From: a virus
Taxonomy: Duplodnaviria > Heunggongvirae > Uroviricota > Caudoviricetes
Reading direction: 5' to 3' (one strand)
Virus record (IMG/VR): IMGVR_UViG_2684622619_000010
Length of the DNA stretch: 5,505 nucleotides
The notes under the pieces were generated by a model. It was not told where the DNA came from. It saw only the letters and a program-made list of their open reading frames with translations, and made no database searches. The translations under genes were made by a program, and so were the position numbers. Every line of letters begins with the position of its first letter. Position 1 is the first letter of the stretch. Below are positions 324 through 5,505 of the stretch, one piece after another.

Positions 324-639
324 ATGAACCGCGTTCTGTGTGTGGTCATCATTGCCCTGCTGGTGGCCTGTGGTGCGCTTAGTCTGGGGCTGAATCATTA
401 CCGTGATAACGCCATAACCTACAAAGAGCAGCGCGATAAAAAAGTCAGTGAGCTGGAGCTGGCAAANNNNNNNNNNNNNNNNNNNNNNNNNNNNNNNNNN
501 NNNNNNNNNNNNNNNNGAACGGGATTATTTCATCCTCAGAGAACGGTTGATGACAATGCAGAAGCAGCTGGAAGGGGCGCAGGAATATATCCGCACTCAG
601 TGCACTAAGCTGGCTTTTTATTATCCGGAGGATACATGA
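324..639 (+). CDS. Rz: Rz-type i-spanin (inner-membrane spanin), interrupted by a 50-N run of wrong length
   Basis: N-terminal part MNRVLCVVIIALLVACGALSLGLNHYRDNAITYKEQRDKKVSELELA matches the TMD and the NHYRDNAITYK.QRDK block of lambda Rz as I recall it; after the N-run, frame 517-639 reads ERDYFILRERLMTMQKQLEGAQEYIRTQC..., matching the lambda Rz C-terminus (ERDYFTLRERLITMQKQLEGTQKYINEQCR). The reading frame changes across the N-run (324 is frame 0, 517 is frame 1). Confidence 0.85.
467..516. other. Run of 50 N: assembly gap or mask of unknown true length
   Basis: Directly visible. The Rz frame mismatch across it shows the true missing length is not 50 nt; a lambda-length Rz would need roughly 190-200 nt here. 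Confidence 0.95.
467..547 (+). CDS. Rz1: Rz1-type o-spanin, C-terminal end only (start codon and lipobox hidden in the N-run; start coordinate is a placeholder)
   Basis: Frame +1 relative to Rz after the gap reads NGIISSSENG then TGA at 545-547 (coding 518-547), matching the C-terminal tail of lambda Rz1 (...NGIISPSERG) from memory; embedded out-of-frame inside Rz as in lambda. Confidence 0.5.
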
Positions 640-724
640 AGAAATTACGGGTAACCGTAGAACCTTTTCAGGGAACAATTCCGTTCCGTATTTTGCAGCG
701 TGGTCGTGTTCTTGTTGAAGGTTC
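636..724 (+). CDS. 5' part of an unassigned ORF (MKKLRVTVEPFQGTIPFRILQRGRVLVEGS...) running into the second N-run; candidate accessory (moron) gene
   Basis: ATG 636-638 overlaps the Rz stop TGA 637-639 (ATGA), with GGAGGA at 626-631 upstream; open to the gap edge. No similarity I can recognise. It is not Bor-like: no lipoprotein signal, and it is on the + strand. Confidence 0.35.
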
Positions 725-774
725 NNNNNNNNNNNNNNNNNNNNNNNNNNNNNNNNNNNNNNNNNNNNNNNNNN
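725..774. other. Run of 50 N: assembly gap or mask of unknown true length
   Basis: Directly visible; TAA at 775-777 immediately follows. By analogy with the first run, the true length is probably not 50 nt. Confidence 0.95.
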
Positions 775-881
775 TAATCAAAAACGATACACACCGGGGT
801 TTACCGCGTTAACGGAGCGCGGCGTTGTCCCCTCATAGTCGCTGGTCCGGTGCGATGGTGGAAGAAACCGGACTACATTAC

Positions 882-902
882 AAATGATAACCATTATCAT
901 TT
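882..902. promoter_or_regulatory. Perfect 9-3-9 AT-rich inverted repeat AAATGATAA-cca-TTATCATTT, Fur-box-like operator candidate
   Basis: Arms 882-890 and 894-902 are exact reverse complements. The core AATGATAAcCATTATC matches 15 of 16 positions of the enterobacterial Fur box consensus GATAATGATAATCATTATC (positions 4-19). Lies about 35 nt upstream of the GC-rich candidate cosN. Confidence 0.3.
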
Positions 903-904
903 TT

Positions 905-1090
905 CGGGTCCTCCTGGTGTGGTGGGCCTGAACACGGGGCGGGCGGCGCGGAAAAAGGCGCATTTTTTGATTTTTATGGCACCATCACCACCAGTGTAAG
1001 TTGTTGATATATAGAAAAATAAAAATTTTTAGTGTCGAGTCTGGTTGTTTTTTGTTCATCACTGGTGTGTGTTTACATAATTTTCAGGGG
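905..1090. other. Candidate cos region: GC-rich cosN-like block (935-951) plus AT-rich cosB-like tract with repeats and IHF consensus, directly upstream of the small terminase gene
   Basis: ACGGGGCGGGCGGCGCGG at 933-951 resembles the lambda cohesive-end region (..ACGGGGCGGCGACCT.. as recalled). It sits about 145 nt upstream of the Nu1-like gene, as cosN does in lambda. CTGGTGTG occurs at 914-921 and 1062-1069, and its inverse CACCAGTG at 989-996. An IHF consensus lies at 997-1009. Confidence 0.45.
997..1009 (-). promoter_or_regulatory. IHF binding-site consensus
   Basis: Minus strand reads TATCAACAACTTA, a perfect fit to WATCAANNNNTTR, embedded in an AT-rich tract between the candidate cosN and the terminase start (compare site I1 in lambda cosB). 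Confidence 0.3.
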
Positions 1091-1095
1091 GAGTT

Positions 1096-1572
1096 ATGGA
1101 TCGTGAATTAAAAAATCTGCATCTGAATATTTCCCAACTGGCCGCATTATCCGGTGCTCATCGACAGACTGTTGCGGCTCGGGTAAAAAACATAAGCCCA
1201 GCCGGTGGTCATGAGAGCAATCTCAAACTGTACCGACTGACAGATATCCTTGCCGAGCTGATGAAAGCTCCTCTGCCTGTAGATAACGAGGAAATGGATC
1301 CTCATGCGCGTAAAGCATGGTACCAGTCAGAACGTGACCGACTGAAATTTGAGCAGGAAACTGGTCAGCTTGTGCCAGTCAGTGATGTCAGGCGGTCCTT
1401 TTCTGTCGTGGTGAAAGCGATAGTTCAGGTACTGGAAACCTGGCCTGACCGGCTGGAGAGGGACAGGGGGTGGACTGCATCACAACTGAATGAAGTACAG
1501 ATTGTGGTTGATGAGATCCGCGACACACTGGAAAAGGCAGTCATTGACTGTTGTGATGAGGCCGATATGTGA
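1096..1572 (+). CDS. Terminase small subunit (Nu1-like DNA-packaging protein), 158 aa
   Basis: Sits immediately 5' of the gpA-like large terminase and overlaps it by 4 nt; N-terminal helix-turn-helix-like segment LNISQLAALSGAHRQTVAARV; G-rich SD-like GGGGGAG just upstream of ATG 1096; size is typical for Nu1-type proteins. Assignment rests on position and HTH, not on strong remembered similarity to lambda Nu1. Confidence 0.75.
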   Translation: MDRELKNLHLNISQLAALSGAHRQTVAARVKNISPAGGHESNLKLYRLTDILAELMKAPLPVDNEEMDPHARKAWYQSERDRLKFEQETGQLVPVSDVRRSFSVVVKAIVQVLETWPDRLERDRGWTASQLNEVQIVVDEIRDTLEKAVIDCCDEADM

Positions 1573-3692
1573 ATCAGGTGAACGAGAGCCATAGCCGCGC
1601 ATCCGATATCTGGCGCGAAGTGGCCTCGCTGTTTCGCCCACCCAGCCGGTTACCAGTAGCGGAAGCCATCAGGCGTTATATGCGGGTTCCACGGGGAGCC
1701 AATACTTCCGGTCCGTGGGAGTCATCGCTGACGCCCTATATGATTGACCCCATTAATACATTATCAGCCCGTGAATATGACGCGGTGGTGTTTGTGGGAC
1801 CTGCGCGAACCGGGAAAACCGAAGGGCTGATTGATGGCTGGATTGTGTACGGCATCATCTGTGATCCGGCGGATATGCTGGTGGTGCAGATGACTGAGAC
1901 GAAGGCGCGTGAGCATTCCAGAACGCGTCTTTCCAGGACGTTTCGCCACAGTCCGGAGGTCAGCAAGCGCCTCAGTCCTTCCCGTAATGACAACAACGTC
2001 CACGATAAAATGTTTCTTGACGGCTCCTTCCTGAAGATTGGCTGGCCGTCGATCACCGTCTTTTCCTCTTCGGATTACCGTCGTGTGGCGCTGACGGATT
2101 ATGACCGTTTCCCTGAAAATGTGGACGGGGAAGGGGATGCCTTCACGCTGGCCTCAAAGCGTACCACCACCTTTATGTCCTCGGGGATGACCCTGGTCGA
2201 GAGTTCACCGGGGCGGGATATCACCGATACCAAATGGCGTTGTGGTGGCGCACATGAGGCACCGCCAACAACGGGGATCCTGTCACTGTATAACCGGGGA
2301 GACCGCCGCCGGTGGTACTGGCCGTGTCCGCACTGCGGGGAATATTTTCAGCCGGTGATGGATAACATGACCGGATACCGGAATAACCCGGATTTTGTGG
2401 CTGCCGGTCAGGCTGCCCGTCTGATGTGTCCGCATTGTCGCGGGCTGATTGCCCCTGAGCAGAAACGCGAACTGAATAACCAGGGGATCTGGCTTCGTGA
2501 AGGTGAACGGGCGGCGGCGGACGGCAGTATCACCGGAACGCCACGAAACTCCCGGATTGCGTCATTTTGGATGGAGGGGCCAGCTGCGGCGTTTCAGACC
2601 TGGGAACAACTGATTTTTAAACTGCTGGCGGCAGAAGAAGAGTATGAGCGAACCGGCAGTGAAGAGACCCTGAAAGCGGTGGTGAACACCGATATCGGAC
2701 GACCCTATCTGCCCCGTTCAGCCACGGAACAGCGTAAAAGTGAACTGCTTGAACAGCGTGCCGAGCCGTTTCCCCGGCGATCTGTGCCGGATGGTGTGCG
2801 TTTTATTGAGGCAACGGTTGACGTACAGGGCGGTAAAAATCGCCGTTTTGTTGTGCAGATCACCGGATACGGAGAGCAGGGGGAACGCTGGATTGTTGAT
2901 CGCTACAACATCCGGCATTCACTGCGCTGCAGTCCCAACGGTGAAAGTCTGCCGGTTGATCCGGCGGCATATCCGGAGGACTGGGATTTGTTGCTGACGG
3001 ATGTGTTCCATAAAACATGGCCGCTGGCTTCTGATCCGGATGTGCGCATGCGTCTGATGGCCATGGCGGTGGATACGGGAGGGGAAGCCGGGGTGACAGA
3101 TAACGCCTATCGTTTCTGGCGTCGTTGCCGGAGTGACGGACTGGGCAACAGGGTGTTTCTGTTCAAGGGGGATGGACTTCGCCGTGACAGGCTGATTAAC
3201 CGAACCTTCCCGGATAATACCGGCAGAAGTGCCCGCCGTGCCAGAGCCAGTGGCGATGTCGCGCTGTGGCTGGTTCAGACGGATGCGTTTAAGGATCGTG
3301 TAAATAATGCCCTGTGGCGTGACACACCAGGGCCGAACTATATCCACTTTCCCGACTGGCTGGGGCGGTGGTTTTACGATGAGCTGACCTATGAAGAGCG
3401 CGGCAGTGACGGAAAATGGCGAAAACCGGGCAGGGGCGCTAACGAAGCGTTTGACCTGCTGGTTTATGCGGATGCGCTTGCCGTTCTGCATGGTTACGAA
3501 AAGATCCGCTGGCCCTCCGCACCGGACTGGGCACAGCGGGAAACGTGGCTCGTCTTCCCGCAGGAGCGTTCTGGTGAAACGGTATCCCCGGAACTGACGG
3601 CCGGGGCAGAAAAACGCCGTCGCCGGAAGAAAAAACTGCGGACGGAGCGTGCGGAAGATAATCCATGGATAACATCAGGAGGCTGGTTGTGA
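1569..3692 (+). CDS. A: Terminase large subunit, lambda gpA family (ATPase plus nuclease), 707 aa, GTG start
   Basis: N-terminus ...SLFRPPSRLPVAEA aligns with lambda gpA ...SLFRPEPQTAVEWA; P-loop VFVGPARTGKTEG (1797-1820); paired CPHC motifs WPCPHCGEYF...MCPHCRG (2325-2438) as in lambda gpA (ACPHCGEE...); GTG 1569 overlaps the upstream stop (GTGA) with GAGG 7 nt upstream. Confidence 0.95.
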   Translation: MNQVNESHSRASDIWREVASLFRPPSRLPVAEAIRRYMRVPRGANTSGPWESSLTPYMIDPINTLSAREYDAVVFVGPARTGKTEGLIDGWIVYGIICDPADMLVVQMTETKAREHSRTRLSRTFRHSPEVSKRLSPSRNDNNVHDKMFLDGSFLKIGWPSITVFSSSDYRRVALTDYDRFPENVDGEGDAFTLASKRTTTFMSSGMTLVESSPGRDITDTKWRCGGAHEAPPTTGILSLYNRGDRRRWYWPCPHCGEYFQPVMDNMTGYRNNPDFVAAGQAARLMCPHCRGLIAPEQKRELNNQGIWLREGERAAADGSITGTPRNSRIASFWMEGPAAAFQTWEQLIFKLLAAEEEYERTGSEETLKAVVNTDIGRPYLPRSATEQRKSELLEQRAEPFPRRSVPDGVRFIEATVDVQGGKNRRFVVQITGYGEQGERWIVDRYNIRHSLRCSPNGESLPVDPAAYPEDWDLLLTDVFHKTWPLASDPDVRMRLMAMAVDTGGEAGVTDNAYRFWRRCRSDGLGNRVFLFKGDGLRRDRLINRTFPDNTGRSARRARASGDVALWLVQTDAFKDRVNNALWRDTPGPNYIHFPDWLGRWFYDELTYEERGSDGKWRKPGRGANEAFDLLVYADALAVLHGYEKIRWPSAPDWAQRETWLVFPQERSGETVSPELTAGAEKRRRRKKKLRTERAEDNPWITSGGWL

Positions 3693-3901
3693 GCACAGAA
3701 GAAGCCAGAGAAATGATACAGCGGTACCGTGAAGCGGAAATGGCCGTACTGGAGGGAAAGTCTGTCACCTTCAACGGGCAGCAACTGACGCTGGAAAGCC
3801 TTTCTCAGATCCGCGCCGGACGTCAGGAGTGGGAACGCAGGCTTGCCGCGATGGTGAGCCGCAGGCGGGGAAAACCGGGATTTAAACTGGCGAGGTTTTA
3901 A
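3689..3901 (+). CDS. W: Head-tail joining / head completion protein, lambda gpW family (about 70 aa from GTG 3689; the ORF track's ATG 3665 is an alternative start)
   Basis: C-terminus ...AAMVSRRRGKPGFKLARF matches the lambda gpW tail ...TQRRRGPAGFYV; AGGAGG at 3677-3682 is 6 nt upstream of GTG 3689, which overlaps the terminase stop as GTGA; a start at 3689 gives a lambda-like length (lambda W is 68 aa). Confidence 0.8.
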   Translation: MSTEEAREMIQRYREAEMAVLEGKSVTFNGQQLTLESLSQIRAGRQEWERRLAAMVSRRRGKPGFKLARF

Positions 3902-5403
3902 TGGCAATTATTGATGATGTGATCGGCGTGTTTTCCCCCGGGTGGAAAGCAGCCAGACTGCGTTCAAGGGCGTTAATCATGGCCTATGAGGCGGTGAAAC
4001 CGACCCGGACACATAAAGCCCGGCGGGAAAATCGCTCTGCTGATCAGCTCAGTAAATACGGTGCGGTTTCCCTGCGGGAGCAGGCCCGTTTTCTGGATAT
4101 CAATCATGACCTGGTGATTGGTGTGTTTGACAAGCTGGAAGAGCGGGTGATTGGTGCCAGGGGAATTATTGTGGAGCCTCAGCCATTACGAAAAAACGGG
4201 GAAATGGCGGCTGAGCTGGCTGCGGATATCCGCCGTTTGTGGGCTGAATGGTCCGTGAGTCCGGATGTGACAGGGCAGTATACCCGTCCTGTGCTTGAAC
4301 GTTTACTGCTGCGGACCTGGCTGCGGGATGGTGAAGTGTTTGCGCAGATGGTCAGTGGTGCGGGAAACGGTCTGGAACGGACAGCGGGAGTGCCATTCTG
4401 GCTTGAGGCGATGGAGCCGGATTTTGTTCCCATGCGCACTGATGAATCCGCCGGACTGAATCAGGGGGTTTTTCTTGATGAGTGGGGAAGACCGAAAAAA
4501 TATCTGGTTTATAAAAATTATCCGGTCAGCGGCCGGCAGAGTGATACGAAAGAAATCGCTGCCGGAAAAATGATCCACCTGAAGTTCACTCGTCGTCTGC
4601 ATCAGACGCGAGGCTCATCCATGTTATCGGGGGTGCTGATGCGGATCAGTGCCCTTAAGGAGTATGAGGATGCGGAACTGACAGCGGCGCGTATTGCTGC
4701 GGCGCTGGGACTGTATATCCGTAAAGGTGACGGACAGGACTATGAAGATCCGGGGATCAAAGAGACCGAGCGGGAAGTCCATATCACCCCGGGTATTATT
4801 TATGACGATTTGCGCAAGGGCGAGGATATCGGCATGGTCAAATCTGACCGTCCCAATCCCAACCTTGAAACTTTCCGCAACGGCCAGTTGCGTGCAGTGG
4901 CAGCAGGCAGTCGTCTGAGTTTTTCCAGTGCGGCGCGTAACTATAACGGCACCTACAGCGCCCAGCGGCAGGAGCTGGTCGAGTCCACGGATGGTTACCT
5001 GATCCTGCAGGACTGTTTTATTGGCGCGGTAACCCGCCCGGTGTACCGGACATGGCTGAATATGGTGGTTGCGGCAGGTCTGCTGAAAATTCCGGCGGAT
5101 GTGGAGATGAAAACGCTATATAACGCGACGTATTCCGGTCCGGTGATGCCGTGGATCGACCCGGTTAAGGAAGCTGAAGCCTGGAGAATTCAGATCCGGG
5201 GTGGTGCAGCGACAGAATCTGACTGGGTGCGTGCCGGTGGGCGCAATCCGGATGAGGTCAAACGTCGCCGCAAGGCTGAAATTGATGAAAACAGCAGACT
5301 GGGGCTGGTCTTTGATACTGACCCCGTCAACGACAAAGGAGGCAACAGTGCCGGAACTGAACGACAGTATCAGCGCGACACCGAAAGCCAGCATGAAGAA
5401 TAA
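3901..5403 (+). CDS. B: Portal protein, lambda gpB family, 500 aa
   Basis: Size and position between gpW and the prohead protease; the segment FSSAARNYNGTYSAQRQEL resembles the lambda gpB block LSRNYAQMSYSTARAS; ATG 3901 overlaps the W stop (TAATG) with GAGG 5 nt upstream. Confidence 0.9.
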   Translation: MAIIDDVIGVFSPGWKAARLRSRALIMAYEAVKPTRTHKARRENRSADQLSKYGAVSLREQARFLDINHDLVIGVFDKLEERVIGARGIIVEPQPLRKNGEMAAELAADIRRLWAEWSVSPDVTGQYTRPVLERLLLRTWLRDGEVFAQMVSGAGNGLERTAGVPFWLEAMEPDFVPMRTDESAGLNQGVFLDEWGRPKKYLVYKNYPVSGRQSDTKEIAAGKMIHLKFTRRLHQTRGSSMLSGVLMRISALKEYEDAELTAARIAAALGLYIRKGDGQDYEDPGIKETEREVHITPGIIYDDLRKGEDIGMVKSDRPNPNLETFRNGQLRAVAAGSRLSFSSAARNYNGTYSAQRQELVESTDGYLILQDCFIGAVTRPVYRTWLNMVVAAGLLKIPADVEMKTLYNATYSGPVMPWIDPVKEAEAWRIQIRGGAATESDWVRAGGRNPDEVKRRRKAEIDENSRLGLVFDTDPVNDKGGNSAGTERQYQRDTESQHEE

Positions 5404-5505
5404 ATCCTGGTTCAGGATGCAAGCTGGGGGGCCGGGTGACGCGGATATTTATATTTATGACGAGATTGGTTTCTGGGGAGTTACCGCGAAGCAGTTTGTC
5501 AGCGA
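5393..5505 (+). CDS. Prohead (head maturation) protease, ClpP-like serine peptidase, N-terminal fragment (lambda gpC position); start 5393 or 5417
   Basis: Open frame to the window end: MKNKSWFRMQAGGPGDADIYIYDEIGFWGVTAKQFVS; the ADIYIYDEIG.W....F pattern is typical of ClpP-family phage prohead protease N-termini. ATG 5393 overlaps the portal end by 11 nt; an in-frame ATG at 5417 is the alternative. SD weak for both. Confidence 0.65.
   Translation, partial: MKNKSWFRMQAGGPGDADIYIYDEIGFWGVTAKQFVS

Follow-up and report, generated by a model that had tools for sequence, protein, structure and literature searches.

What does this prophage carry between its spanin gene Rz and its packaging genes, and how much of it lies concealed under a run of Ns at that very place? 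The window, as we call the whole stretch of 5,505 nt (5.5 kb) that was analysed, is the late region of a lambdoid, Stx-type E. coli prophage. It runs from the end of an endolysin gene through a small transmembrane (TM) ORF, Rz, the ORF in question (from 636; ORF74 hereafter), a non-coding stretch, the terminase genes and a gpW-like gene to the portal gene. Rz, the i-spanin gene, occupies 324..639 on the + strand (PF03245, E=1.7e-49; phrog_13, E=3.9e-76). At the far boundary of the region, the packaging module starts with a DUF1441-type small terminase subunit (1096..1572, + strand; PF07278, E=2.3e-49; phrog_141), followed by a lambda gpA-type large terminase (1569-3692). The non-coding stretch before the terminase genes contains, near 933-950, a cosN-like GGGGCGGGCGGCG; we take this segment, ACGGGGCGGGCGGCGCGG, to be similar to the lambda cosN region and presumably a cohesive-end site, if a putative one. 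Upstream, the small TM ORF (221-322; 33 aa, GTG start, one TM segment; phrog_6632, E=1.6e-19) ends just 5′ of the Rz start. It is annotated in CP-1639 and PPyecE_EH1910 and has no RefSeq annotation. Between the endolysin gene and this ORF, positions 116-148 form a strong hairpin with a T-rich tail (AAAACCCCG...CGGGGTTTT), which is terminator-like despite its position within the late operon.

The window contains two N-runs, each of exactly 50 N, at 467-516 (inside Rz) and at 725-774. The second interrupts ORF74, of which codons 1-29 and a further 2 nt can be read 5′ of the Ns (636..724, + strand). An earlier note on this DNA had described a Shine-Dalgarno GGAGGA (627-632, + strand, 3 nt 5′ of the ATG), the ATG (636-638) and an ATGA overlap with the Rz stop TGA (637-639), all of which are seen in the sequence; our reading of the N-terminus, MKKLRVTVEPFQGTIPFRILQRGRVLVEG(S), also agrees with that note. 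It had further proposed that a complete accessory gene, or more than one, may be missing from the assembly under the Ns. We mapped the three non-N segments of the window base by base onto a reference, NZ_CP038428.1 (L001 in the coordinates given here), in which Rz corresponds to L001 5629-6123. The segments differ from the reference by 1 mismatch, 0 mismatches (517-724) and 18 mismatches (4731 nt, 775-5505), respectively, and in this mapping the two N-runs replace 229 nt (467-516) and 233 nt (725-774). Under the first are most of the coiled-coil region of Rz and the beginning of Rz1, the embedded o-spanin, which has 56 aa and the lipobox LVVSAC (L001 5864-6034, ending at window 550). Of the 233 nt under the second (L001 6209-6441), 136 nt complete ORF74 (codons 30-74 and the stop), the next 15 nt are spacer and the last 82 nt are the beginning of a conserved element described below. 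The full ORF74 is 225 nt long, encodes 74 aa and ends at L001 6344; the 58-aa ORF (636-812) of the mechanical ORF listing is an artefact of translating through Ns. In a scan of the genome-contig collection, 109 peptide patterns matched and tblastn confirmed 0 relatives, though the gene is common in E. coli. The N-runs may be masks rather than assembly gaps, if that collection was masked at the locus.

The view that the second N-run conceals at least one additional complete cargo gene draws on two considerations: fixed-length N-runs do not report true size, and the slot holds several genes in other phages, such as a DUF4406 gene and two more in L010. Against it stands the length of the same interval in other genomes. 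A megablast search with window 517-1100 (584 nt) against complete E. coli genomes returned 74 genomes at 80% or higher query coverage, and in each of the best 20 of these, including two complete O157:H7 genomes with 100% identical flanks, the query spans 766-768 nt. Nor did inspection of all ORFs on both strands of the hidden stretch in L001 yield a further credible gene. Apart from the ORF74 3′ end, the other sizeable frame (66 aa, L001 6305-6505) contains in-frame stops in five divergent copies (L003/L007, L005, L008, L010) and was rejected as a gene. A further hidden gene is, in our judgement, very unlikely, and the missing-cargo part of the earlier interpretation does not hold: in the relatives with identical flanks, the gap amounts to 233 nt, that is, the remaining 45 codons and stop plus non-coding sequence. 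The 66-aa frame matches phrog_6954, which carries the PHROGs label 'Rz-like spanin'. The same label is found on an ORF over the conserved element in some GenBank records, e.g. VT2phi_272 (L110 1769-2014). Because the frame has stops in the five divergent copies, the label, in phrog_6954 as in these records, seems to be an annotation error that has spread, the element being non-coding.

ORF74 itself is by no means new to the databases. It is already catalogued as RefSeq WP_000736383.1 ("hypothetical protein"), as UniRef A0A0F4HGS4 and as a member of phrog_2571, and its exact sequence is present on at least 1000 contigs, without exception as a hypothetical or uncharacterised protein. We found it in 1244 of 5426 complete E. 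coli genomes, including that of O157:H7 EDL933, and, by tblastn, in 26 of 50,697 phage records. Among its homologs from E. coli and Salmonella, which are about 74 aa long and whose identity falls to 53-64%, the N-terminal half is strongly conserved and the length changes (indels) are in frame. The composition of ORF74 (GC 0.467, GC3 0.427) sets it apart from both Rz (0.539/0.552) and TerL (0.575/0.606).

Could ORF74 nevertheless be a chance ORF or a decaying remnant with no function? In favour of this view are its small size, the lack of a Pfam family and the fact that several phage records do not annotate it. The substitution pattern argues otherwise: among divergent copies, pairwise dN/dS (Nei-Gojobori) is 0.14-0.43 at dS 0.4-1.3, well below 1, the higher values for L008 being due to its frame-shifted C-terminus. 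The gene is shown to be under purifying selection. Furthermore, each of the 80 viral-contig loci retrieved contains an intact copy that begins with ATG, the predicted fold of the protein is confident, and relatives about 26-37% identical, of the same length and motif pattern, extend across Enterobacteriaceae phages. We consider a chance or decaying ORF extremely improbable. There is, on the contrary, little doubt that ORF74 is a real, complete and dispensable cargo gene and that the N-run hides nothing else.

The position of the gene is remarkably constant on one side only. Where the copies of ORF74 are 93-99% identical, Rz directly precedes the gene in all 78 loci with upstream sequence, and three unrelated packaging modules follow it (YnfO/HNH with an HK97-type terminase, lambda Nu1 and DUF1441); ORF74 is linked to Rz, not to the packaging module. 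A 74%-identical copy in Stx2c/Stx2a phages and a 64%-identical copy in Salmonella are likewise located directly after Rz, and in L009 a relative of ORF74 follows a different lysis cassette. The proposed translational coupling to Rz is real in the window, but it does not extend to the relatives: in L004, L005 and L008 the Rz stop lies about 21 nt 5′ of the ATG, and every copy compared has a GGAG-type motif 5′ of the ATG. In the lineage of the window (612-639), the usual Rz stop has been mutated, which adds nine residues (LAFYYPEDT) and creates the ATGA overlap. Judging from this comparison, the overlap is a derived state.

The expectation that the interval between Rz and cos would hold accessory cargo was borne out. 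In VT2phi_272, ev245 and ev017, bor is located on the reverse strand between Rz and the same downstream element that follows ORF74 in the window, and therefore ORF74 is an alternative occupant of the bor slot. Elsewhere there is nothing in the slot: in CP-1639, which is 98.5% identical to the window, L001 6088-6359 (272 nt) is replaced by 18 nt, which brings the Rz stop up to the conserved element, and Stx2_499 also lacks ORF74. Absence from close relatives had been named in advance as a sign against the ORF. Some of them do lack the gene, yet the polymorphism is one of clean presence or absence, as expected of a moron. The resemblance to Bor of lambda and of 933W-type and lambda-like phages comprises the identical slot, the status of optional cargo and the small size of the protein. 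Bor is encoded on the opposite strand, is an exported lipoprotein and is expressed in lysogens. ORF74, unlike Bor, is on the late strand, is coupled to Rz, has neither signal peptide nor lipobox and shows no sequence similarity to Bor. The anti-sRNAs AgvB and AsxR of EHEC prophages map to the pR′ moron site and not to the ORF74 slot.

Whether ORF74 should be called a moron depends to some extent on the definition. Among lambdoid phages, stx downstream of pR′ is an example of a late-operon moron. Like such morons, ORF74 is an extra gene of atypical composition between otherwise adjacent genes and would be carried on the late transcript; unlike them, it is located at the Rz end rather than at pR′, and its own promoter and terminator were not detected. 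A consensus scan, which is weak evidence in this respect, revealed no sigma-70 promoter-like site on the + strand of L001 5300-6800; terminator-like sites on the + strand were found only upstream of or inside ORF74, and none 3′ of it. In terms of the moron concept of Juhala et al. 2000, as cited in PMC4104026, ORF74 displays both the insertion between elements that are adjacent in relatives and the differing base composition, whereas the consensus scan did not reveal the promoter and terminator of its own that would allow expression from a repressed prophage. On balance, the original observation was sound and its moron-slot interpretation holds: ORF74 is an ordinary, catalogued but uncharacterised phage moron.

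The slot has a well-defined downstream boundary, formed by a conserved non-coding element of about 185 nt (L001 6360-6545). In the window, its visible 3′ part is at 775-878 (+ strand) and the other 82 nt are under the N-run. Copies of the element with 75-99% identity are present in 397 phage records, 933W-type podophages and lambda-like phages among them, and the element is also found in 79 of the 80 ORF74 loci, always 3′ of Rz, bor or ORF74 and 5′ of unrelated packaging modules. RNAalifold applied to 13 diverse copies predicted a multi-stem structure in which pairing holds in 97% of cells. Six of its pairs show double-sided changes as against 0-3 in slid controls, and out of 500 shuffles none reached the observed value for four of five measures (3 of 500 did for the fifth), values to be read with the proviso that the structure was derived from the same alignment on which it was tested and that the sequences are related. 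There are 65 G.U but only 5 A.C pairs, and therefore pairing holds better on the late-transcript strand (97.0%) than on the opposite one (85.8%). Folding of single sequences gave null z-scores (-0.28 and -0.19), and the search of Rfam returned no match to the element at E up to 1. We regard the element as a candidate structured RNA in the late transcript or, alternatively, a candidate recombination linker.

Homology search and structure prediction, now run on the full ORF as the earlier note had advised, yielded both a family and a confident fold. The match to phrog_2571 (E=2.7e-28) aligns ORF74 residues 1-73 with profile positions 100-172 of 291; PHROGs annotates this family as of unknown function. 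No matches to ORF74 were obtained in Pfam (E up to 1), NCBIfam or PDB sequences. The AlphaFold2 model, based on a 19-sequence alignment, has a mean pLDDT of 90 and a pTM of 0.76 and represents a compact small β-sandwich of seven strands and one short helix. No clearly specific structural match to it was found, any similarity to carbohydrate-binding, lectin or TNF-C1q-type jelly-roll domains could be of the generic β-sandwich kind, and its score against XepA falls among those of dozens of unrelated β-sandwiches. We found neither a TM segment nor a signal peptide or lipobox in the protein (the maximum 19-residue Kyte-Doolittle window is 0.76), and since it has no hydrophobic segment, it is predicted to be soluble and cytoplasmic. 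A disulfide or metal site is disfavoured because cysteines are not conserved in distant members. Similarly, members of the family differ widely in pI (4.9 to 9.5), which makes nucleic-acid binding unlikely as its common function. Full-text literature searches turned up nothing on WP_000736383.1 or its core sequence, a general search returned nothing specific, and a preprint on Pas sRNAs contained no terms relevant to the ORF74 locus.

A profile search for the wider family, covering 1.8 billion representatives, recovered standalone relatives of 70-81 aa with the pattern MKxLxVT..F.V.Q.G..L.ED..SGK...Y.VDA.D..L.VE. Multi-repeat matches (cystatin repeats, TQ-domain repeats and low-complexity proteins) were discarded as repeat-inflated false positives. 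The search also showed that a 280-aa E. coli prophage protein, P0065, embeds an ORF74-type domain at residues 95-162. P0065 and three further proteins, P0058, P0069 and P0071, match phrog_2571 as well. The genomic settings of the distant members are diverse. The P0065 gene shares the interval from Rz to the small terminase gene with a DUF4406 gene; that of P0058 is immediately upstream of a gene with the PF24729 Acb2_Tad1_hairpin domain, which is followed by Nu1; that of P0069 occupies the Q-holin slot and adjoins a GrlR-like gene; and that of P0071 is near Ail/Lom and BamE-like genes. P0061 is encoded in an immunity-region cluster (L101 1-4216), where an S24 repressor and a eukaryotic-type Ser/Thr kinase precede it on the same strand and ParDE adjoins it; we take this cluster to be reminiscent of the cI-stk arrangement of 933W. 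Some distant members are preceded by genes of about 200 aa, which share no homology among themselves. ORF74 shares with mEp237 gp60 and P0065 both the membership in phrog_2571 and the position 3′ of Rz. P0065 differs from it in that the domain is flanked by a helical N-terminal region and a C-terminal region; the P0065 model (pLDDT 55) was too poor for a fold search. Like the sponges of Acb2/Tad1 type, the ORF74 protein is small, soluble and without enzymatic motifs, and the family occurs in accessory clusters. Yet ORF74 is a β-sandwich and not a helical hairpin, it has no similarity to these proteins in sequence or fold, and the two are associated only by neighbourhood (P0058).

Many of the distant members do not stand alone. 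In seven independent contexts, a gene of phrog_4280 is located 39-68 nt 3′ of the phrog_2571 gene on the same strand; the cassette is found at L005 4001-4471 and L009 3001-3481, in L019/L020, L103, L104 and L105, and in the cultured phage mEp237 (L106 2696-3222), where the pair gp60-gp61 lies between Rz and the right genome end. The phrog_4280 products have 68-73 aa (89 aa in L103, with a diverged C-terminus), and their ribosome-binding region is conserved. The partner was the more conserved of the two genes in all 21 pairwise comparisons, with a median identity of 66% as against 37.5% for the phrog_2571 gene. The lineage of the window lacks the phrog_4280 gene that comes after mEp237 gp60 and after most distant members: tblastn revealed no match to phrog_4280 in L001 or any of the 80 viral loci, and no similarity was found that would identify the spacer 3′ of ORF74 as a decayed partner. 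Homologs of phrog_4280 with 39-47% identity are also present in Pseudomonas phages (L107 2189-2707; L108 2192-2683), antisense among tail genes. Each of these is preceded by a different small ORF, an arrangement of a constant gene with variable companions; the small ORFs are unrelated to the ORF74 family.

How might ORF74 act? Since neither a dedicated promoter nor a dedicated terminator was detected, it would be expressed from the Q-dependent late transcript, with its translation coupled to that of Rz, and the protein would accordingly be present in the cytoplasm late in lytic growth. There it would bind a partner, either a protein or a small ligand, rather than act as an enzyme or a nucleic-acid binder. 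Binding to a partner is the most likely mode of action suggested by the model and the family comparison, since the domain is very small, no residues that look catalytic are conserved in it, and neither its cysteines nor its net charge is conserved. As to the purpose of such binding, we tentatively favour a role in interaction with the host, such as counter-defence or exclusion, over one in lysis or packaging. This preference, which at the level of functional class is a cautious one, derives from the mobility between slots, from the accessory neighbours (Acb2/Tad1-type, Lom/Ail, GrlR-like, repressor-kinase) and from evolution much faster than that of phrog_4280. Taken as a whole, the explanation that combines a cargo gene with a late, binding-type, host-interaction role is probably correct.

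Two other roles deserve consideration. One is that of a lysis accessory, a regulator or helper of the spanins or of lysis expressed stoichiometrically with Rz. The properties of the protein speak against this. Lacking a signal peptide, lipobox and TM segment, the protein is predicted to be unable to reach the periplasmic domains of Rz and Rz1. Unlike the spanins themselves (Rz, Rz1 and the unimolecular type), it has neither an N-terminal TM anchor nor an outer-membrane lipoprotein signal, and genuine Rz and Rz1 genes are present upstream. Moreover, ORF74 is cleanly absent from close relatives that have the same Rz; distant members reside in the Q-holin slot, in the immunity region or beside Nu1, where the vicinity contains no lysis genes; and the XepA score, being one among dozens, gives such a role no backing. 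A lysis function appears quite unlikely. Somewhat less so, if still rather doubtful, is a factor that would be expressed from the prophage and act in the lysogen, in fitness, defence or superinfection exclusion. The products of bor, lom, rex and stk are prophage-expressed factors acting in the lysogen. ORF74 shares its slot with the first of these genes, and the surroundings of P0061 (S24 repressor, kinase, ParDE), P0071 (Ail/Lom and BamE-like) and P0069 (GrlR-like) fit the same picture. What argues against action in the lysogen is that no promoter-like site was seen on the + strand upstream of ORF74 in the window, that its translation is coupled to a late gene and that the protein, in contrast to Bor and Lom, is predicted not to be exported. 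In addition, PADLOC-DB contained no family matching ORF74, the phrog_4280 partner, P0065 or P0058 at E up to 1. Returning to the preferred host-interaction role, a more specific version of it may be sketched, one that we offer as speculative and do not think likely in full. The phrog_2571 and phrog_4280 genes might constitute an undescribed counter-defence or exclusion module, with the β-sandwich as its fast-evolving, target-binding half, that hops between the moron slots of enterobacterial lambdoid phages; the window would then carry a 'solo' derivative, placed in a slot whose boundary is a conserved, structured RNA element of the late transcript.

Overall, the N-run hides no cargo and the gene that it interrupts is an already deposited, widespread hypothetical gene, a negative but useful result. 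The element that marks the boundary of the bor/ORF74 slot deserves a closer look, as does the pair of phrog_2571 and phrog_4280. ORF74 is carried by nearly a quarter of complete E. coli genomes, O157:H7 EDL933 being one of them, and would be on the late transcript that is switched on when Shiga-toxin phages are induced; a defined role for it, be it counter-defence, exclusion or another, would therefore bear on the biology of STEC phages.
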